The position numbers and the translations under genes are program-made. 64,000 nt of DNA. Source: a virus (lineage: Duplodnaviria > Caudoviricetes). How positions within the stretch are numbered: the first letter of the stretch is position 1; each line of letters starts with the position of its first letter. Below the pieces are notes generated by a model. That model had not been told where the DNA came from. It did not search any database and was given only the letters and a program-made list of their open reading frames with translations. This document shows, one piece after another, positions 3,001-61,677 of this stretch. The stretch is taken from positions 74,716 through 138,715 of the IMG/VR virus record IMGVR_UViG_3300026258_000271; one strand, given 5' to 3'.

Positions 3001-6000
3001 TGAAAATACTGTGTTGTTGATATATTGCACATTGTTACGTCCTGCCCAGTTGTAAAAATCTGGACCCATTATATCATCTATTTCACTGAAACTGTACTCA
3101 GTTGAGGTGAATGCACTAGGCATCACTTCCGACACATCCAATAATGTGTTATCATATTCTACTTTACAGTTGTTGTAAATTCTTTTCTCTAACTCTAAAA
3201 TCAAATCATCTCGTTCATCGCCGTAGGCTTTTATTATAGAACCGTCGTGTCTTCTGATAGCATTTGTAGTTGTGATGTATGTGTTATCGCTGAAAAGTTC
3301 TGGTTTGAACTTAGGATACATTCCAAGTTTAGTTGGACTAGATGGCAAATAACTTCCAGTGGTGTCACTGTAATCTTTGATTTTTAATATATCTCCAACG
3401 GCAACAGTTGTTGAAAGTGTGATACTGTCATCTTCAGTGCTGAATGTATATTCTGATCCATGAACCAGTTGCACATCATTTTTGTAAACGTAAACTGCTC
3501 TGTTGCTCAATGTTGTTAAGTTGTGTTGTGAATCTAGGGCAAATTCTTTTTGAGATGTTCCCTGCACTGTGATTGTTCTTGTTGAAACATTTTCACCCCA
3601 ACCAATCATATCGTCGTAATAGAAAGGAAAACTGCTGTTCTTGCCTAGGTTAATCGCTGATATTATTTCGTCAACTCTGTCAGCAGGCACGCCTTCGTAC
3701 GCTGAACCTGTTGCATGTGTCAAGAAAGAATTGTACCATTTTTCGTACTCTCGGTTAACATAATCAATGGCCGTAATTGCATTTGCCTCTTGGTCCGTCA
3801 AATTGAATATCGCAGGTACCAAGGACGCTTCGTGTTGTACGATGGTACCACCGTTGAGTCTGCTGTCAGGCTTGTCCCTGAGGTTTGTTACTCCGGGAAT
3901 TGCACCAGTGACATCTGTATTCTTTTCTAAAATATCCGTTGTGTGTTTCAAAATCTGACCATAAGTGAAAGTGCCAACTGTTGAATTCAGTGCATTGATA
4001 GATAAATTTTCAGGCACCTCGTAAATTCCTTTGCCGGCAACCTTGTTAGCACTGCTGTAACCAGCAATCCTAATTTGATCATTCACTTTCAATTCATCCA
4101 CAAATCTCACATATTTGTTCGTGGAACCATCTACTAGTGTGTAATCTGTTGTAAGTGATTTTTGAACACCGTTTACACTTACGGAAATTTCGAGATCGGT
4201 AAGTGATGCCGAATTTTCATAGAAGTCTATTGGAAAAAGTCTCTTCTCGGTAGCATCAACAATAGCCGTCCTTATGACACGCTGTTTAGATTCACTTGTA
4301 CGTTTTATCCATGCACTTTTATTATTGTGAGATTGCAAACTTGTTGTGTAGTGTAGATGACCTTCTGCTTGATCCTTGGTTTTTGTCGTACCATCTTGCT
4401 GATATGTAAATGTTCCTGCTGTGTGATCCGACTCGAATACAATATCTCCAACATTGTTAATTGTGTTGTATTTTACTTTGATGCCAAGCACAGTGTCCGT
4501 TGTCGCTGTATCTGAAGTCGCGTATGCAAAAATCTTTGCACCTGTGAACGTTGAGTTTGGATAGGTTGTTGCATCATCAAACAGCACGTGGTTGTTGTCG
4601 TAAAGATTGAACAAAGGCTGTTGGTTTAATTTTGTTTTCTGTTGTGTTGCCACCCATAGTGTACTTGCTTCATCGTAGTAATACGAATTTCCTTTATTTT
4701 CGGTGCCTTGTTTCACAAAAATGTTTTCTTTATCTTGCGCCGTACCATTTACCTCTTCTGTCAGTGTCAATGACAACACTGATGAATCACCAGCATCCAC
4801 AAAGTTTGCAACGTATATTTTATTTCTTACCAATGGATCTGTGTCAGCAGAGAAAACCACACGCATACCGTCCGTGATTGCCACGCCGTCGATTATGTAA
4901 CCAAATGTTCCAGAAACGTTACTCATCGCATCTTTCTGTGTTGTGTCAAACAAGTCCACAGGTGTCTTTGCAACTGTTCCTGAATTGTATAACGCAAGTC
5001 CTGAATCGAATTCTATAATCGGTCTTTTGGCACGAGCAGTTTCGTCTAATGCTGTTGTTGTTCCGTTGATAGCATTGGCTCTTTCTATCACAGACCTATG
5101 GAACCATCTGTTGTATCTAGTCCATGCATTCAAATCCCTAGAATCTCTCTTGATTGTGATGTAGTCCTTGTCCACCGGAACACCATCGTCTGCATAACTT
5201 TCGGGTGTTGCCAGGTTTGACACATCAGTAATTGTTATTGCATCTCCTACACCTTCAACATAATATTCTTTTCCTTGATAAGCACTGGCCACTTTGCTTG
5301 AAGTGAATTTGATCTTCATGCCGTTTGACAGTTGTAGGTTACGCAATTTGTAATTTTTCGTTCCTACTATATCATCCTCTACATCAATATTTGTAGTACT
5401 TGCAACAGTGTGAATGTTTATCAGTCCGTACATGTTCTCATGATTTCCACACTGATAATACAACTTGTTTGGTGCATTGTTTGGAATAACAAACGTGACT
5501 GTTCCTTCACTGGCTCCATTATTTGTAACACCTGATGTGTACAAAGTCGAAGACGAACCATCCGATGCCACTTGATCCTTTCTTGGTTCTGTCATTATGT
5601 AGAACGGATGTCCTTTTGCGTTCACTTTGAATTTGTATGTGTTGCCCCTGTAAAGTATAAGTTCTGAATTCCTCTCATTGCCTAGATGTGGGAAATGCCA
5701 GGCTTTGCCAGAACTTCCGTCGTCCGGCAATGCTTTCACATCGTATTCTGCTTCCGCACCTGTGCCGGCAGAGTCTATTTCTATGCAGTCAGGTCCGTTA
5801 CTCAACCAATAGTATTCCCTGTAATTGATCAATTTGTCTAAATCTACTGCTGGGTTCCAACTGTAAACATTGCCTTTGTTGAGCCTGTCGTGGTTGTTTA
5901 CCTTTCCTCCTAGGTACTTGATCTGATTAAGATAATCATCGTATGTGCCTGTGAACTTTACTTGGTCTTCTGGGTTGACTGAAGTTGTGTCTTTGTCTGT

Positions 6001-21823: not shown

Positions 21824-21856
21824 AACCCTCGGCTTTTACTAGTCGGGGGTTTTTTA
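21824..21856 (+). terminator. Intrinsic terminator
   Basis: AACCCTCGGCT-tttact-AGTCGGGGGTT followed by a T-run, between convergent genes. Confidence 0.8.
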
Positions 21857-22726
21857 TTTGCACGTTCCACACATTGTAAGACAAGTGGGTATGTAATTTT
21901 TTTGTTTGATTGTGCTCAGTATATCTACTGAAGTGTGTTCTGTCTTTTCCAAATAACAACAAGGTGTAAGTCTACCCAAGGCACTTAGAAAAAGACTTTT
22001 CAATGCTAAATGCATACAGTCCTTTGTCTGCACTGTGTTGTTTTCAACACCGAGAGTGTTCTTGTGCAGTATACCATCTTTCCTTTCCCATTGTTTGCGA
22101 TGTCCTGACCATGGTTCTATTTTTACAGGCTCTCCTGTTCTATAGTCAAATGCCTTTTTATGATATCTTGCATTTTTAATAAATTCGAATCTTCGAAATC
22201 CAAGTTTGGCGGACATCCTCATACAGTCCTTAATTTGGTGTTCGTTGTGTTTGAACGGAATAAACTGCCAAACTGCTTTTCCGCCTGCTTGTATAAATGA
22301 GGTTGCGTTACCGATAACCTTTTTCCAATTGGTACCTTGTCTGTAAATGCTGTGAGTGTCTTCTAATCCATCCAAAGCAAACCAAACTTCCAAATCGGGT
22401 AGTCTATCCGGAAGTTCTTTCCACCATTTTTTTGTCCGTAAACTGCCGTTGGTCTGTAATTGGACCGATACTCCGGCCTTTGCCAATACATCTATATGCT
22501 TGTCAATTAGTTTACCTGCACAAGGATCACCATAAACTCCGCATAGTTGCACAGTCTCCAAAGACGGCAACTTTGCTATTGTGTCGGACAACTTATCAAC
22601 CGGCAGGTCCGTGACCTTCACACCGCTGAGTCCATAGCCGAAATTGTTACGTCCACATCCACTGCACCATGCGTTGCATCTAGTGGATGGTTCAACGTGT
22701 AACCATTTAATATCTTGTAGATGCAT
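21854..22726 (-). CDS. Radical SAM protein with a C-terminal Cys cluster (twitch/SPASM-like)
   Basis: CNAWCSGC (CxxxCxxC), GDP and TNG motifs; C-terminal C...PCC...CxxxC. Confidence 0.85.
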   Translation of the reverse strand: MHLQDIKWLHVEPSTRCNAWCSGCGRNNFGYGLSGVKVTDLPVDKLSDTIAKLPSLETVQLCGVYGDPCAGKLIDKHIDVLAKAGVSVQLQTNGSLRTKKWWKELPDRLPDLEVWFALDGLEDTHSIYRQGTNWKKVIGNATSFIQAGGKAVWQFIPFKHNEHQIKDCMRMSAKLGFRRFEFIKNARYHKKAFDYRTGEPVKIEPWSGHRKQWERKDGILHKNTLGVENNTVQTKDCMHLALKSLFLSALGRLTPCCYLEKTEHTSVDILSTIKQKNYIPTCLTMCGTCK

Positions 22727-23131
22727 TTATTTCAATATGCCTTTACCGTGTACCCTTACACGTATATGCCCATTGTAGTAATCGTTTGTTTCTAGCACCT
22801 TACGTGCAAACTGCTCACGTGCCTCAACGTAAGATAGTTCTGCTTTGGACTTGCAGAAAAAAAGTATTTCTCTCTTGAACTTGTCCTTGCCTAGTTTATT
22901 AACATCCATAGTGAGATCATCACTTGACCCGTAATAGTCTTGCCAATCAGAATTAACCTTGTATCTACGCTTGTTCTTTCTGCCTTTCAGTGGTGGTCTG
23001 GATCTTTTAAATCTAGCAAGTTTCTTACCTACGTACATCCTACCGTTGGTTGTATTTGTAATAAGGTACACAAATCCCACAACGTTTTCTGGCATATTGG
23101 TAATTTCATTTCCTTGATAAGTCCAATGCAT
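22727..23131 (-). CDS. Free-standing GIY-YIG endonuclease (T4 endonuclease II/Seg-like)
   Basis: GFVYLITN...MYVGKK, YYGSS, FKREIL, conserved Glu and YYN. The likely start is the ATG at 23131, 5 nt after a minus-strand TAAATA (23142-23137). Confidence 0.8.
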   Translation of the reverse strand: MHWTYQGNEITNMPENVVGFVYLITNTTNGRMYVGKKLARFKRSRPPLKGRKNKRRYKVNSDWQDYYGSSDDLTMDVNKLGKDKFKREILFFCKSKAELSYVEAREQFARKVLETNDYYNGHIRVRVHGKGILK

Positions 23132-23185
23132 AGCCATATTTAAAGCCAAAAAGATTGACCTACAAAGAAAACTCATATAAACATA

Positions 23186-23600
23186 TGCGATAGGCACATC
23201 TCAATTTCAATCAGGCAAACATAGCATCGCAACCAGTGAGCAAGGAAATGCGGCAGAAATGCGACAGGTGAATCCTTAGATGCAGACAGCAAAAAATGAT
23301 GAGGCTCCTAGAAAAAGATAGACCTCAGATTTACCAAGAACCATTATACAGGGGTTTGGTAGATTCGCGTTGTAATGAATGAGCAAACGGGTACAGCACA
23401 ACCGCCCGACGCAAGTAGCGATGTATAGTGACTGTGAACTCACCACAGAGTTTAGTCAGTTCGGCTAGAGATAGCCGAATTGTGACTGCTCATCTACCAC
23501 AGAGAACGCATACTGCGTTCAAGTTTTTTACAACTGCGTAAGTTAAAAAAAGAAACGAGCGTAAGCGAAGTTTCAGATGGCGTAAGCCGTCTCTGAATCA
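23186..23600 (+). ncRNA. Candidate large structured non-coding RNA and/or replication-origin element
   Basis: ORF-free gap of about 480 bp in an otherwise packed genome. It holds at least 9 local or nested helices, GNRA tetraloops (GAGA, GTAA) and G-U pairs consistent with the plus strand, with a promoter-like TTGACC...TATAAA/TAAACA at 23155-23183. Confidence 0.6.
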
Positions 23601-23615
23601 GCAGTAAGTATTAGC

Positions 23616-24389
23616 ATGGAACTACTATTCGATCACACTTTCGGCAAACAGGAACAGCAGGACCTAGTGATATGCAAACCCATGGCCATAGTGGACCATG
23701 ACGAGGAGGCGGAGGCATTGGACCGAGGCTGGCTGGCGCTGGACCACCCCATAGACAAGCACAAAGAAGTTTTCTACCAATCACGTAGCACACGCATAAA
23801 CATGGACCTGTACCGTCCCAGATACAAGTCACACACCTACAATGGTGAGCAGATAGGCGTAAAGGTTATCGACGCATCTGAGATGGTTAAACTGTTGTCG
23901 CTACCGCACATCTACAAGCAGTACATGAAGCGGAAAAATTTTGGCGCGGACTACGACCCGTTCGCACACTATCACAAGCGTGACCAGTTCATGGTGTTCT
24001 ACCTGGGCACCGCTGACAACATTGTGGGATTCACCAAACAGAAGAGATACAGGTTCCAGGAGGACAACTACTCGACCATAGACACCTTTGACTCACAGGA
24101 CCTGGCGGGACTGGAGAGCGTGATACACGCCAACACCATACCCATATCGGACATCACGCTGGACATGGAGATCGAGTGGGCCAGCAATCACTACGTGAGG
24201 TACTTCTACATGGGTTCGGGGTATGAGCAGAGCTCGGAATACAAGGCCAACTACAAGGGATTCGAATGGTGGACCGGCACCGAGTGGAGCACCAACAAGA
24301 AGCAGTATCGTAGATTGTGTCGCAGGGACAGTAAACTCACTGAGTTTTCCGCTCTCGGAAACCTTTCACTGATTCCAGATAAGTCTTAG
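23616..24389 (+). CDS. ATE/Bpt-like aminoacyl-tRNA--protein transferase
   Basis: ALDRGW, QSRSTRI and C-terminal YFYMGSGYEQSSEYKANYKGFEWW resemble the ATE_C motif Y-L-G-Y-x6-YK-x2-Y-x2-E. Confidence 0.65.
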   Translation: MELLFDHTFGKQEQQDLVICKPMAIVDHDEEAEALDRGWLALDHPIDKHKEVFYQSRSTRINMDLYRPRYKSHTYNGEQIGVKVIDASEMVKLLSLPHIYKQYMKRKNFGADYDPFAHYHKRDQFMVFYLGTADNIVGFTKQKRYRFQEDNYSTIDTFDSQDLAGLESVIHANTIPISDITLDMEIEWASNHYVRYFYMGSGYEQSSEYKANYKGFEWWTGTEWSTNKKQYRRLCRRDSKLTEFSALGNLSLIPDKS

Positions 24390-24855
24390 ACCAGTTCCGG
24401 TAATAGGGACCTGACTCCAGCATTTTAGAAAATCTGTTCAACTTGCTCAAACTTTGCACGAGGAACAGCGTGTACTCGCCGTTGTTGAGTTTCACGTGTC
24501 GCACACTCTCGTCGATCCCAGGATGGTCCTCCAGTATCACCACGTCACGGGGCATCTGTTTTTCGTTGAACCATTCCGCCATGCTCACAGTCTGTTCCGC
24601 GGTGAACGTGTCCGGATCACAAATGATGCAGAGCACGTCCTTGTCCCTGCTGTCATACTGACATATGTGCCTGTACACCTGGCGCCAGTCTGCGTCACGT
24701 GGTATCTCCACGAATGCTACCTTGTCCTCTATGATCGCCTTCTGTGCGAACGGACAGGGTGGCAGGTTGCCGAAGACGGGATTTGGTTTCGTGACGAAAT
24801 CCTTAATCCAGTTCTTTATCTTCTGTGTCGGGGTCTGTTTCTTCTGTTGAGTCAT
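24337..24855 (-). CDS. DUF1415-like hypothetical protein
   Basis: W-I-x-x-F-V...LPPCPFA and EDHP motifs resemble DUF1415; overlaps the ATE-like gene tail-to-tail by 53 bp. Confidence 0.5.
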   Translation of the reverse strand: MTQQKKQTPTQKIKNWIKDFVTKPNPVFGNLPPCPFAQKAIIEDKVAFVEIPRDADWRQVYRHICQYDSRDKDVLCIICDPDTFTAEQTVSMAEWFNEKQMPRDVVILEDHPGIDESVRHVKLNNGEYTLFLVQSLSKLNRFSKMLESGPYYRNWSKTYLESVKGFRERKTQ

Positions 24856-35753: not shown

Positions 35754-35875
35754 ATAAAAAAAATATTTCACCTTCATACCTGACGCAGACCAAATAAGGT
35801 AGTTTTACTTTTAAGCAGTGCTTCTAAATAATTCTGAGTTTCATTAGAAACTTACAACATCAAGGGAGGTCCAAT

Positions 35876-36109
35876 ATGGATATCATGATGAAAGTAAAAG
35901 GATGGGCGAAAGCAATCGCTGATGTCGGTGTATCATTCATCGCGTTAGGAATTGTTTTAGAAATTCTTTTCAACGGTCAAGGTATTCCGTTCTGGCCAAA
36001 CGTTTCAGTAATCGGAAACGTCCAGGGCGTACTGCAAGGATTCTCAGATCAAGGTTTGATCGGATTAGTTGCAGTTTGGATTTTATATCATATCTACAAC
36101 AGAAAATAA
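35876..36109 (+). CDS. Small membrane protein (77 aa)
   Basis: Two hydrophobic segments; strong SD GGAGG; TAAATA at 35825; own terminator. Confidence 0.75.
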   Translation: MDIMMKVKGWAKAIADVGVSFIALGIVLEILFNGQGIPFWPNVSVIGNVQGVLQGFSDQGLIGLVAVWILYHIYNRK

Positions 36110-36138
36110 TATAAAAATCTAGAAATACGTTAACCTCG

Positions 36139-36176
36139 AGAGTGGTGTGAGCCATTTTGTTTACACCACTCTTTTT
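36139..36176 (+). terminator. Intrinsic terminator
   Basis: AGAGTGGTGTGAGC-catttt-GTTTACACCACTCT plus T-run. Confidence 0.85.
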
Positions 36177-36216
36177 CTACACATTTAATAACTCACAAAA
36201 TTTGGTAAATACTATC

Positions 36217-36306
36217 AGTTCAAACGTGCTTTCACATACAGTGAAAGACTTATGCGGATAACAACCGCGTAGCCAGGAGAACTGGCATTGGACTCCTATA
36301 AAGGAG
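36217..36306 (+). promoter_or_regulatory. Structured 5' leader (four-way junction plus anti-SD hairpin)
   Basis: A 7-bp closing stem encloses three hairpins and begins 6 nt after TAAATA (36206-36211); details are in the findings. Confidence 0.55.
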
Positions 36307-36313
36307 AAAACAA

Positions 36314-36751
36314 ATGGGAAGACCTATCAAAAAAAGTAAAATGGCTGGAAGTGCCTCAGGTGTAGCAGGTAACATTGCAGTTACGGCTTACAGAGCATCT
36401 GGTGGTTCAAAAGTTGACTCTACAACGGCTTATATCATAAGTCAAAGAGGATCTAAATTATTCAAGATTTCTTTGGAAGATTCAACTTCTGGCGTTTACT
36501 GTTTAAAAGCAGTAGCACCAGGTTCATTATCAGCGTCTCCACCAAACGGATCTGCAGGTGAATTCTGTGTACAGATGATTCTAAATGACTCAACTGTTGC
36601 ATACGTAGAGAAATTCTACAACAACACAGTACACTATGTTGATGCCGCAGGAAACACAGGTGTTACAAAATACACACTTGGAACTGAGACAACTGACGAA
36701 GGACAAGCAGGCGCAGGAATTGGTAACATCGACGTTATCACAGACCAGTAA
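36314..36751 (+). CDS. Putative virion structural protein
   Basis: 145 aa starting MGRPIKK, with YIISQRGSKLF; strong SD, own late promoter and terminator. Confidence 0.6.
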   Translation: MGRPIKKSKMAGSASGVAGNIAVTAYRASGGSKVDSTTAYIISQRGSKLFKISLEDSTSGVYCLKAVAPGSLSASPPNGSAGEFCVQMILNDSTVAYVEKFYNNTVHYVDAAGNTGVTKYTLGTETTDEGQAGAGIGNIDVITDQ

Positions 36752-60084: not shown

Positions 60085-61677
60085 ATGGCGTATGTATCAT
60101 TAGACAGCGACCAAATTAAAAAGGCGCACAAGAAACACAAATACACTAAAGAACAAGTTGAACAACTTGAAAAGTGTATGGATGAAAAAACAGGTCCACT
60201 TTACTTCATGAAACAGTTCATGAAGATACAACATCCAACAAAAGGTGAGATGAAATTTCAACCTTTTCCTTACCAAGAAAGATTAGTAGAGGCATACAAC
60301 AATCATCGATTTAGTATATCTATGCTTCCAAGGCAAACAGGAAAAACTACATGTGCATCAGGATACCTTATATGGTATGCAATGTTTAAACCAGATTCTC
60401 AAATACTAATCGCCGCTCACAAATACGCGGGTGCATCAGATATCATGTCAAGGGTGCGTTATGCATATGAGATGTTACCTAGTTGGATAAAAGCAGGCGT
60501 AACACAGTACAACAGGAACTCAATAGAATTTGACAATGGGTCAAAAATTATGGCAACCACAACAACTGAGAACACAGGTAGGGGTATGTCACTTACATTA
60601 ATATATTGTGATGAGTTTGCGTTCGTTCAACCACCAGAAAAAGCCAAAGAATTTTGGACATCACTGTCTCCAACATTGAGTACAGGTGGTAAATGTTTGA
60701 TTACTTCAACTCCAAATAGTGACGAGGACCAATTCGCTATGATTTGGAAAGAAGCAAACAAGAGATTTGATGAATATGGAAATGATAAAATAGTTGGTAC
60801 CAACGGTTTCTATGCCATGAAAGCACACTGGAACGAACACCCAGACAGAGATGAAGCATGGGCAGAACAAGAACGTTCAAGAATTGGCGAAGAAAGATTT
60901 AGAAGGGAACACGAGTGTGAGTTCTTAATTTTTGATGAAACACTCATATCAAGTTTGGTGCTGGCAGACATGGAAGGTGTACCACCTGTAGAAACCACAG
61001 GACAAGTGCGTTGGTTCAAGAGACCCACACCCGGACACACCTACATGGTTTCATTAGATCCAAGCATGGGAACGGGAGGAGACTTTGCCGCAATACAGGT
61101 ATTTGAACTGCCAACCTTCGAACAAATAGGTGAATGGCATCATAACCAAACACCAATGAATCAGCAAGTTAGAATACTTCAAGGTATCAACAAGCATATA
61201 CATGACACAATTATGGAAAAAGATGCAACAGCATCTCCACAAATATTCTATAGTATGGAAAATAATTCAATAGGTGAGGCCGCACTCATGAGGGTAATGG
61301 ATATTGGCGAAGAGAACATACAAGGCATGTTTCTATCAGAACCTATTAGAAAAGGACATAGAAGAAAATTTAGAAGAGGATTTAACACAACAGCGAAACA
61401 CAAAATAGATGCCTGCACAAAATTTAAAGAACTTGTAGAAAACGATAAAATGAAAATTCATTCACAATTATTAATATCAGAACTAAAGGATTTTGTTGCA
61501 TCAGGATTATCATATAAAGCCAAGCCTGGACAACATGACGATCTAGTAAGTGCTTGTTTGCTTATGACTCGTATGATGAAAGTATTAGCAGATTTTGACC
61601 CAAAAATCTTCGAAAAATGGACTGACAGAACATCTGAGATAACCCCAATGCCTATATTTGGATCGTTCACAGGTTAA
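60085..61677 (+). CDS. gp17: Terminase large subunit
   Basis: PRQTGKTT (Walker A), IYCDEFAF (Walker B), ITSTPN, DPSMG and HDDLV motifs. Confidence 0.96.
   Translation: MAYVSLDSDQIKKAHKKHKYTKEQVEQLEKCMDEKTGPLYFMKQFMKIQHPTKGEMKFQPFPYQERLVEAYNNHRFSISMLPRQTGKTTCASGYLIWYAMFKPDSQILIAAHKYAGASDIMSRVRYAYEMLPSWIKAGVTQYNRNSIEFDNGSKIMATTTTENTGRGMSLTLIYCDEFAFVQPPEKAKEFWTSLSPTLSTGGKCLITSTPNSDEDQFAMIWKEANKRFDEYGNDKIVGTNGFYAMKAHWNEHPDRDEAWAEQERSRIGEERFRREHECEFLIFDETLISSLVLADMEGVPPVETTGQVRWFKRPTPGHTYMVSLDPSMGTGGDFAAIQVFELPTFEQIGEWHHNQTPMNQQVRILQGINKHIHDTIMEKDATASPQIFYSMENNSIGEAALMRVMDIGEENIQGMFLSEPIRKGHRRKFRRGFNTTAKHKIDACTKFKELVENDKMKIHSQLLISELKDFVASGLSYKAKPGQHDDLVSACLLMTRMMKVLADFDPKIFEKWTDRTSEITPMPIFGSFTG

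Follow-up and report, generated by a model that had tools for sequence, protein, structure and literature searches.

Large, ornate RNAs that are rich in GNRA loops, such as GOLLD and ROOL, are known to be associated with phages, and their function is obscure. A much shorter entry of this kind of inventory, the orphan motif Polynucleobacter-1 (Rfam RF01718, 141 nt), occupies one table row in Weinberg et al. (2010; PMC2864571), which assigns it to 'Burkholderiales, fresh water/estuary' and marks it 'y' (probable) for a cis-regulatory role. Within the accessible parts of the literature, that row of PMC2864571 is the only description of the RNA treated here, and the accessible text of the pelagimyophage paper contains none. 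Our subject is a gap in the phage record IMGVR_UViG_3300026258_000271 (138.7 kb), from which a window of 64,000 nt was analysed; positions are numbered from the first letter of this window. We show that 23190-23592 on the plus strand is a stand-alone gene for what is predicted to be a compact, pseudoknotted non-coding RNA, which belongs to a superfamily shared by phages and bacteria. The best overall explanation, which we consider reasonably probable, combines this RNA gene with a scaffold that displays the same short word twice and with a small nuclease gene that is a swappable neighbour.

The gap (23138-23615) lies between a minus-strand gene for a GIY-YIG nuclease (22727-23137) and a plus-strand gene for a protein of 257 amino acids resembling aminoacyl-tRNA transferases (ATE-like; 23616-24389). 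A preliminary description, made from the sequence alone, had called it the largest stretch in the window free of open reading frames (ORFs). This holds for ORFs of at least 60 amino acids (23198-23610, 413 nt), but at a threshold of at least 80 amino acids the stretch 35778-36313 is larger. The predicted plus-strand structured RNA is about 340-410 nt long, and its gene is present as a single copy in the 138.7-kb record. The plus strand reached a minimum free energy of -127.1 kcal/mol, compared to a mean of -103.2 +/- 5.5 kcal/mol for shuffled sequences (z -4.37; none of 100 shuffles was as good). In the same shuffle test the minus strand gave a z value of -2.94.

The preliminary description had suggested that homologous gaps be collected from related phages and tested for covariance. 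These gaps turned out to be conserved as well as covarying. A search with the downstream protein retrieved 43 loci on viral contigs. The gap sequence was found in 42 of them, at 78-96% nucleotide identity, and the 43rd came without upstream DNA. The RNA is often conserved better than the downstream protein. For instance, at locus L035 the protein is 71% identical, against 95.7% for the RNA over 415 nt. A search with the 19-nt word GGGUACAGCACAACCGCCC (23389-23407) gave exact matches on at least 119 viral contigs, and those listed include 109 unique copies of the RNA.

RNAalifold predicted 83 pairs on 31 copies, 21 of which had compensatory changes. When 84 unique copies (effective number 39) were scanned for mutual information, a pseudoknot emerged in addition, formed by the loop of the long hairpin H3 (23344-23350) and 23422-23428. 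A hand-built model of 90 pairs in 19 helices was evaluated on alignment A2 (mafft G-INS-i), which contains 52 representatives that are <92% identical to each other and to which the pairing percentages below refer. Under this model 92.2% of the cells were paired, compared to 79.8% in shuffles, with compensatory changes on both sides in 53 pairs and 577 cells. The covariation score was 0.407 versus 0.178 in the shuffles, and none of 500 shuffles attained any of these measures. When the partners were moved by 1-3 columns as a control, only 31-37% were paired and the score did not exceed 0.086. Hence, the earlier proposal of a large, multi-domain phage non-coding RNA on the plus strand is borne out by covariation across 52 homologues.

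The assignment to the plus strand, proposed earlier from G-U pairs and GNRA loops, agrees with the alignment, in which G.U cells (497) far outnumber A.C cells (96). Tetraloop usage points in the same direction: across the 52 sequences, the loop of mini-hairpin H5 is UACG in 23 and GNRA in 20, and that of hairpin H7 is GNRA in 47. The G.U excess and the UACG and GNRA loops thus indicate an RNA that is read from the plus strand. On the same grounds, a single-stranded DNA target of Ssn-type GIY-YIG nucleases was rejected. The protein-coding test revealed no conserved reading frame. Stop-free stretches of at least 45 amino acids occurred in all three minus-strand frames (28, 44, 52), with ends that shift; long stretches of this kind are found chiefly on the minus strand, owing to the A-richness of the plus strand. 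Substitutions lacked a 3-base periodicity as well (variability by phase 0.191, 0.163 and 0.175). ARAGORN found no transfer RNA (tRNA) or transfer-messenger RNA genes in the window. The test for a group I intron gave no Rfam match, and the genes on either side, both intact, are encoded on opposite strands.

The RNA consists of three parts, all on the plus strand. The 5' domain comes first, then a knotted core organised around an invariant 19-nt hairpin, and last a 3' domain with two similar boxes, which we call the twin boxes. The RNA begins with a 5' tail (23192-23217) that holds two AGGCA(A/C)A words, at 23192-23196 and 23213-23217. Their columns are invariant or nearly so in A2, and the number of copies in relatives ranges from 2 to 4. 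The 5' domain (23224-23283) is formed by the helices 23224-28/23279-83, 23242-46/23273-77 and 23249-51/23268-70 and has a variable apical hairpin. Helix 1 of this domain is 96.5% paired, with three of five pairs covarying, and helix 2 is 92.5% paired, with three of eight covarying; the pair 23250/23269 alternates between G.U and A.C.

The core starts with hairpin H2 (23301-23326; TGAGG/CCTCA), which has a conserved GAAAAAG-type loop and a conserved AAUGAUG before it. It is 100% paired, and three of its four outer pairs covary. The long hairpin H3 (23328-23365; ATTTACCAA/TTGGTAGAT) is 97.6% paired, with 11 of 13 pairs covarying, and its loop (23344-23350) forms the pseudoknot PK1 with the 3' strand 23422-23428 (seven pairs, 99.2% paired, six of them covarying). 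PK1 is kept with unrelated sequences in divergent subfamilies (CUUGAA/UUCAAG, UUUGAA/UUCAAA and CUACAUA/UAUGUAG). Next comes UCGCGUUG (23365-23372), invariant in 52 of 52 sequences; its GUUG(U) may form a second pseudoknot with (A)CAAC of the H4 loop. Hairpin H4 (23388-23408; CGGG/CCCG) carries the 19-nt word and is 100% paired. The pair 23388/23408 covaries (CG in 37 sequences, UA in 14), and a pattern search for members with a changed H4 closing pair gave 16 matches, none of them RNA-like. Mini-hairpin H5 (23409-23416), with its swapping tetraloops, sits inside the helix 23383-84/23418-19, both pairs of which covary; C23384 pairs better with G23418 (100% paired; CG 43, UA 9) than with the partner given to it in the preliminary description. 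Overall, core helices 4-11 of the model are 76.5-100% paired. The succession H2-H3-H4-H5, with the H3 loop paired to a strand 3' of H5, is found in the window copy and is kept in divergent types.

In the 3' domain, twin box A (23428-23450) consists of GUGACUG-N-CUC and the word ACCACAGAG (23442-23450), and lies in a hairpin loop. Twin box B (23482-23504) consists of GUGACUGC-N-CU and the same word (23496-23504). Hairpin H7 (23457-23482), which has a GNRA loop, stands between the two boxes and is 99.1% paired, with 5 of 11 pairs covarying. It is followed by H8 and a T-run (23504-23529; stem 23504-23520, GAACGCA/TGCGTTC). This hairpin is 76.3% paired, with four of seven pairs covarying, was called by a terminator scan and, from its sequence, looks like an intrinsic terminator; it is missing in some relatives. 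The RNA ends with two GNRA-capped hairpins (23552-23591), GAAAC-GA-GC(GUAA)GC-GAA-GUUUC and then AGAUGG(C GUAA G)CCGUCU, which are 96.8% paired (five of five pairs covarying) and 93.9% paired (three of six). The form GAGCG-NN-AGCGAA followed by a second hairpin was also seen in distant phage and bacterial copies, and both hairpins are conserved even where no gene follows. In many relatives the last hairpin, too, is followed by U-rich sequence.

The hairpins given above with both strands, as well as H7 and the two GTAA-capped 3' hairpins, had been listed in the preliminary description and hold up on A2. In contrast, three other helices of that list, TGCGAT/ATCGCA and the long-range GTTGTAA/TTACAAC and ATGAGCA/TGCTCAT, drop out: together they are 73.8% paired versus 72.3% in shuffles, and they show 7 compensatory pairs where 6.9 are expected.

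Both twin boxes have the form GUGACUG-N-CU(C) and flank H7, and within one RNA the word at their end is identical in both boxes. It is 7-9 nt long and lineage-specific, with variants across the family that include ACCACAG, GCCACAG, AGCACAU, AGUACA, ACUACAA and AACGUGAUG, among others. Distant phage types likewise share a word between their boxes (AGAUGAG/AGAUGAU/AGAUAAU; ACAUGAAG/ACGUGAAG/ACAUAAU), and in the bacterial copies, with AGCGAAA or GGCGAAAG, the word is again the same in both. The spacing of the two boxes is 52-60 nt across the family. In 84 sequences, the changes at 23442/23496, 23443/23497 and 23448/23502 are parallel, not complementary, and no third column complementary to the twin-word columns was found within the RNA. 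A search for a complementary target of the word found none in the RNA, the window or the 138.7-kb record. The simplest reading is that a sequence-specific reader outside the RNA recognises both boxes and evolves along with them.

Several familiar explanations of the doubled word were tried and rejected. As a counterpart of a tRNA anticodon loop, several variants would match the anticodons GUG or GUA, but AGCACAU and AGUACA would need a pyrimidine at position 37, which to our knowledge is always a purine. The word is not a mimic of a CCA end, as it varies away from CCA, nor a coding repeat, as the spacing (52-60 nt) does not keep to multiples of 3. In a CRISPR-like mini-array the 'spacer' would be a conserved hairpin.

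In the gap itself, Rfam gave no match at gathering scores, and a search relaxed to E 10 in 23050-23750 yielded only chance matches at E >1. Covariance models nevertheless reveal a much wider family. Model R1 of the core (143 positions, 28 pairs) was built from window-type copies only. It found nine of nine divergent copies at 38.6-54.4 bits; chance matches to the 19-mer gave just a 19-nt partial hit. Another 80 loci were gathered by similarity of the GIY-YIG protein alone (59-94% identity). The full core was found in 22 of these by R1 and in 32 by a second-round model, R2. An iterated nhmmer profile, which may drift, placed the core in 71 of the 80 loci and in 61 of the 62 that are flanked on each side by at least 600 nt. 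We take the 32 of 80 from the covariance models as the firm figure; the type recovered by nhmmer only was confirmed by eye in 10 loci.

RF01718 matched 9 of 28 scanned loci at 62-118 bits, between the stop codon of the GIY-YIG gene and the core. In three loci (L250, L265 and L260), R1 matched directly 3' of RF01718 at 29.7-34.6 bits (E 3.5e-6 to 5.7e-5) and R2 at 65-69 bits. Judged by these matches, RF01718 is the 5' domain of a predicted RNA of ~450 nt, with a core and a twin-box domain in common with the window RNA. The window-type core models thereby detect homology to the RF01718-bearing RNAs over the rest of the molecule, and the gathering score of RF01718 (37 bits) is not reached by the window copy. 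The RF01718 model itself matched nothing in 23050-23750 up to E 10, and at gathering scores nothing in the entire window. The preliminary description had spoken of an undescribed RNA. This stands for the window copy, which has no Rfam match, but the copy represents a divergent branch of a superfamily that is partly catalogued, with RF01718 as the 5' third of the RNA elsewhere.

The superfamily occurs in hundreds of contigs of uncultured aquatic T4-like or jumbo phages and in Polynucleobacter-type chromosomes. When 151 genomes of one bacterial order were sampled, three contained RF01718, and a further hit lay below the threshold. The genomes that carry it are Polynucleobacter according to the source names of a neighbouring protein, and their copies carry the whole architecture, including the twin boxes and 3' hairpins. 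Among 50,697 records of cultured phages, blastn with the gap, blastn with the core (E <=10) and tblastn with the downstream protein returned nothing or chance matches of ~29 nt. The models of GOLLD, ROOL, HEARO, OLE and raiA found nothing in the gap at E <=10, and 13 loci of relatives gave nothing but RF01718 at E <=0.1. The exact 19-mer had seven matches in 185,579 species genomes. A bacterial origin on the basis of these matches was rejected, because four are short phage-like contigs in metagenome-assembled genomes of four different phyla and three are chance matches in GC-rich coding DNA. The four RNA-bearing contigs (L165, L169, L170 and L171; 2-10 kb), from assembled genomes labelled Neomarinimicrobiota, Pacearchaeota, Pseudobdellovibrionaceae and Betaproteobacteria, are probably mis-binned phage DNA.

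A promoter-like region precedes the RNA on the same strand (23155-23185), as proposed in the preliminary description. Its -35 element TTGACC (23155-23160) follows an A-tract, and 30 of the 31 copies in the alignment conserve both TTGAC and the A-tract. A consensus promoter scan, however, made no call, because the -10 element (TATAAA at 23176-23181 or TAAACA at 23178-23183) is weak. The conserved -35 element and the terminator-like hairpin H8 in the RNA support a stand-alone gene. Contigs from four marine RNA libraries, belonging to four studies, cover 23203-23489 and lend weak support to transcription. The runs were chosen with the window sequence and the contigs are short and shallow, and no weight is given to the uncovered parts or to the contig ends, which coincide with variable stretches of the RNA.

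In the mechanism that we propose, the RNA would act in trans as a folded scaffold that shows one lineage-specific word of 7-9 nt twice. The reader of this word would bind two copies, as a protein dimer or as a nucleic acid that is encoded elsewhere, and would not be the RNA itself. We offer this trans-acting scaffold with a two-copy-binding partner only tentatively. For the second component, that the small nuclease gene beside the RNA is a swappable neighbour of the homing type and not an obligate partner, we see the chances as evenly balanced. Several points weigh against this combined explanation. The -10 element is weak, and transcript support comes from short contigs in sequence-selected runs, one contig also spanning the promoter. 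No complementary target of the twin word was found in the 138.7-kb record. The figure of 71 of 80 loci depends on an iterated nhmmer profile that can drift, compared to 32 of 80 confirmed by covariance models. Finally, the linkage to a nuclease is nearly constant (80 of 86 and 61 of 62 loci), so that a functional tie is possible, and a GIY-YIG protein devoid of a DNA-binding domain would be odd for a homing enzyme.

The nuclease gene (22727-23137, minus strand) is transcribed away from the RNA and encodes a stand-alone domain of 136 amino acids (Pfam PF19835 SegE_GIY-YIG, E 5.2e-36). Its AlphaFold2 model (pLDDT 90.9) had the catalytic domain of I-TevI as best fold match in the PDB (probability 0.98, TM 0.68). 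Both the Pfam and the fold match indicate a catalytic domain alone, in agreement with the earlier observation that a DNA-binding domain is lacking. Identity with endonuclease II of T4 (DenA) was considered and the label was not adopted; there was no PDB sequence match, and the best fold match is I-TevI. The closest cultured homologue, in Methylophilales phage Melnitz (58% identity), sits behind nrdB, the position of denA in T4 as well.

Of 86 unique RNA copies whose 5' flank spans at least 1.6 kb, 80 have a GIY-YIG gene no further than 3 kb away. The gene is the immediate neighbour in 64 of them, divergent in 61 and on the same strand in 3, and stands at a distance of 0.6-3 kb in the other 16. 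Of the six loci where it is absent, four have a PDDEXK_15 putative phage endonuclease in its position and one an ATE_C paralogue. Loci picked by the GIY-YIG protein show the RNA adjacent in 61 of the 62 that are well flanked, with the RNA downstream on the same strand in 60 and divergent in 7. DUF6641 is the divergent neighbour in all three bacterial loci whose flanks are long enough (L271 1796-2263 +, L272 1466-1966 +, L274 1785-2237), with no GIY-YIG homologue within about 1.5 kb. A fold search with DUF6641 gave no meaningful match to solved structures, every probability being <0.4. The Spearman correlation between RNA and neighbour was 0.69 for the nuclease (n=51) and 0.91 for the ATE-like protein (n=23).

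An alternative explanation is a nuclease-RNA particle, in which the RNA would be the specificity or scaffold subunit of the adjacent small nuclease and the twin words would recognise or guide. The preliminary description had already considered the RNA as a partner of the GIY-YIG protein, and the linkage in phages is strong (80 of 86 loci). The RNA is adjacent in nearly all well-flanked, protein-picked loci, in two arrangements; the protein is a catalytic domain alone; and another small nuclease replaces the missing GIY-YIG gene in four of six loci. Yet complete bacterial copies have DUF6641 instead, PD-(D/E)XK enzymes take the position in four phage loci, and Melnitz has the nuclease homologue without any such RNA, either near it or anywhere in its genome. 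More widely, homologues at 42-47% identity occur in 538 records of cultured phages, and the RNA was matched in none of them. There is also no hypervariable terminal guide: the test for a guide RNA found no hypervariable block of 15-20 nt at the ends of the RNA, and neighbours vary (GIY-YIG, PD-(D/E)XK, ATE-like, DUF6641). The variable word measures just 7-9 nt, with no complementary site in the phage record. Two unrelated folds at one site, moreover, are the classic pattern of homing-endonuclease turnover, in which unrelated nuclease folds take one spot beside an ultra-conserved gene. Since the nuclease is swapped in relatives and replaced by DUF6641 in bacteria, it looks like a swappable neighbour, and we regard the particle as unlikely. 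Its more specific form, a new ribonucleoprotein nuclease in which the RNA is the targeting or scaffold subunit and the twin words give substrate recognition to interchangeable GIY-YIG or PD-(D/E)XK domains, seems to us rather less probable still.

Two further observations concern the surroundings of the nuclease gene. In Melnitz, CAUAGCAAC stands just after the GIY-YIG homologue (L164, ~3440-3470). It is the word that opens the 5' domain of relatives, no further similarity to the RNA follows, and it could be a remnant or a chance match. In the window, a radical SAM gene of 290 amino acids (21854-22726, minus strand; Pfam E 7.2e-07, phrog_21308 E 2.1e-27) lies directly behind the GIY-YIG gene, and several loci have homologues of it (23-32% identity) in the vicinity of the RNA.

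A ribozyme is about as unlikely as the nuclease-RNA particle. The knotted core (H3, pseudoknot, H4 and H5) would then be the catalytic part, acting for instance in self-processing of the RNA at its twin boxes. The invariant 19-nt hairpin in the core, at least one pseudoknot and the many GNRA loops would suit such a role, and two identical words could mark two processing sites. However, no Rfam ribozyme family matched at E <=10.

The gene that follows the RNA bears on whether the RNA is a cis-regulatory leader or riboswitch. The 257-amino-acid protein has no Pfam hit, and its neighbours in a protein atlas carry ATE_C and Acetyltransf_6 domains (aminoacyl-tRNA transferase-like). Its gene begins 24 nt downstream of the last hairpin, with no strong terminator in between, which would favour a leader, as would the 'y' in the table of PMC2864571. 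In contrast, the next gene is ATE-like in just 34 of the 63 loci with enough flank and is convergent in at least 14 of 60. The downstream gene varies, and the RNA is therefore not simply a leader. It also holds a terminator-like hairpin of its own and directly follows the nuclease gene in most relatives. We consider a leader quite improbable. The 257-amino-acid gene travels with a convergent gene for 172 amino acids (24337-24855, minus strand; weak DUF6875 hit), and a distant paralogous pair of these two genes (27-38% identity) lies across the RNA in L047, L050, L109 and L136.

Equally improbable, in our view, is a decoy of a host RNA. Here the bacterial RNA and DUF6641 would be part of a host system, for instance an RNA-antitoxin or a defence module, which the phage copy neutralises or exploits. 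The direct repeat of one word is reminiscent of type III antitoxin RNAs, and the RNAs of Polynucleobacter-type chromosomes are built like those of the phages. Furthermore, among cultured phages the closest homologue of the nuclease is encoded by one of the marine OM43 clade (Methylophilales), a clade that belongs to the same GTDB order as Polynucleobacter. Nevertheless, DUF6641 lacks a fold match and no toxin gene was identified.

A replication-origin or primer RNA has the least probability of these alternatives: transcription does diverge at the locus, and the broad cumulative GC skew minimum of the 138.7-kb record is no more than about 10 kb away, but the skew tracks gene orientation, its minimum is at 88-90 kb and the RNA at 97.9 kb, the covarying helices and RNA-type tetraloops exceed what a primer needs, and the same RNA is single-copy in a bacterial chromosome context. 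The earlier suggestion of a tRNA mimic for the ATE-like enzyme is not supported, since an ATE-like gene follows in only about half of the loci (34 of 63) and the twin word is not an anticodon-loop complement.

Elsewhere in the window, the gap 35778-36313 (536 nt), the largest ORF-free stretch at the 80-amino-acid threshold, holds a freshwater-2 RNA (Rfam RF02980; 36230-36316, plus strand; 81.6 bits, E 6e-11), which ends at the start codon of an ORF of 145 amino acids (36314-36751). The large terminase (60085-61677, plus strand) has its closest cultured relatives among jumbo Pseudomonas phages of the PA5oct group (55.6% identity), and CheckV gave a completeness of 39% for the 138.7-kb record. 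The phage is probably a jumbo T4-like myovirus without a cultured relative.

What makes this RNA stand out is the extreme conservation of its core, a doubled word that mutates in concert, and the presence of small nucleases of different folds as constant neighbours. Polynucleobacter strains have been isolated and grown. Their cultivability opens the function of the RNA to genetics, and a result obtained there would extend to the phage copies.

Free-standing homing endonucleases of T4-like phages, such as the Seg enzymes, adjoin conserved genes, and the present locus resembles them in that different small nuclease families take the same spot beside a conserved gene. It differs in that the nuclease is nearly always present, not patchy, and is without a DNA-binding domain. 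The locus also bears a likeness to the guide RNAs of nucleases carried by transposons, the omega RNAs and reRNAs of IscB and TnpB (e.g., RAGATH-18 with IS607 TnpB; PMC11061315), where an orphan structured RNA stands beside a small nuclease gene, often just downstream. Here, however, the enzymes are GIY-YIG or PD-(D/E)XK instead of RuvC/HNH, there is no variable terminal guide and there are no transposon ends, and the twin-box RNA also occurs without any such nuclease. With GOLLD and ROOL the RNA has in common that it is large, highly structured, GNRA-rich and often carried by phages, but it is smaller (~400 nt) and matches their Rfam models in neither sequence nor structure.

The closest relative remains Polynucleobacter-1. 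Both are orphan RNAs of aquatic origin with a homologous core and 3' twin-box domain, and they differ in the 5' domain, of which the window has another, shorter version. The probable cis-regulatory rating in the table of PMC2864571 does not fit the window RNA. The RF01718 entry covers about one third of the RNA and is without the pseudoknotted core, the twin boxes and the 3' hairpins. Hence, the orphan motif that the 2010 table presents as 141 nt and probably cis-regulatory is one third of a knotted RNA of ~400-480 nt, which has a far wider and so far uncatalogued family among abundant, uncultured phages of aquatic habitats; one such branch includes the window copy.

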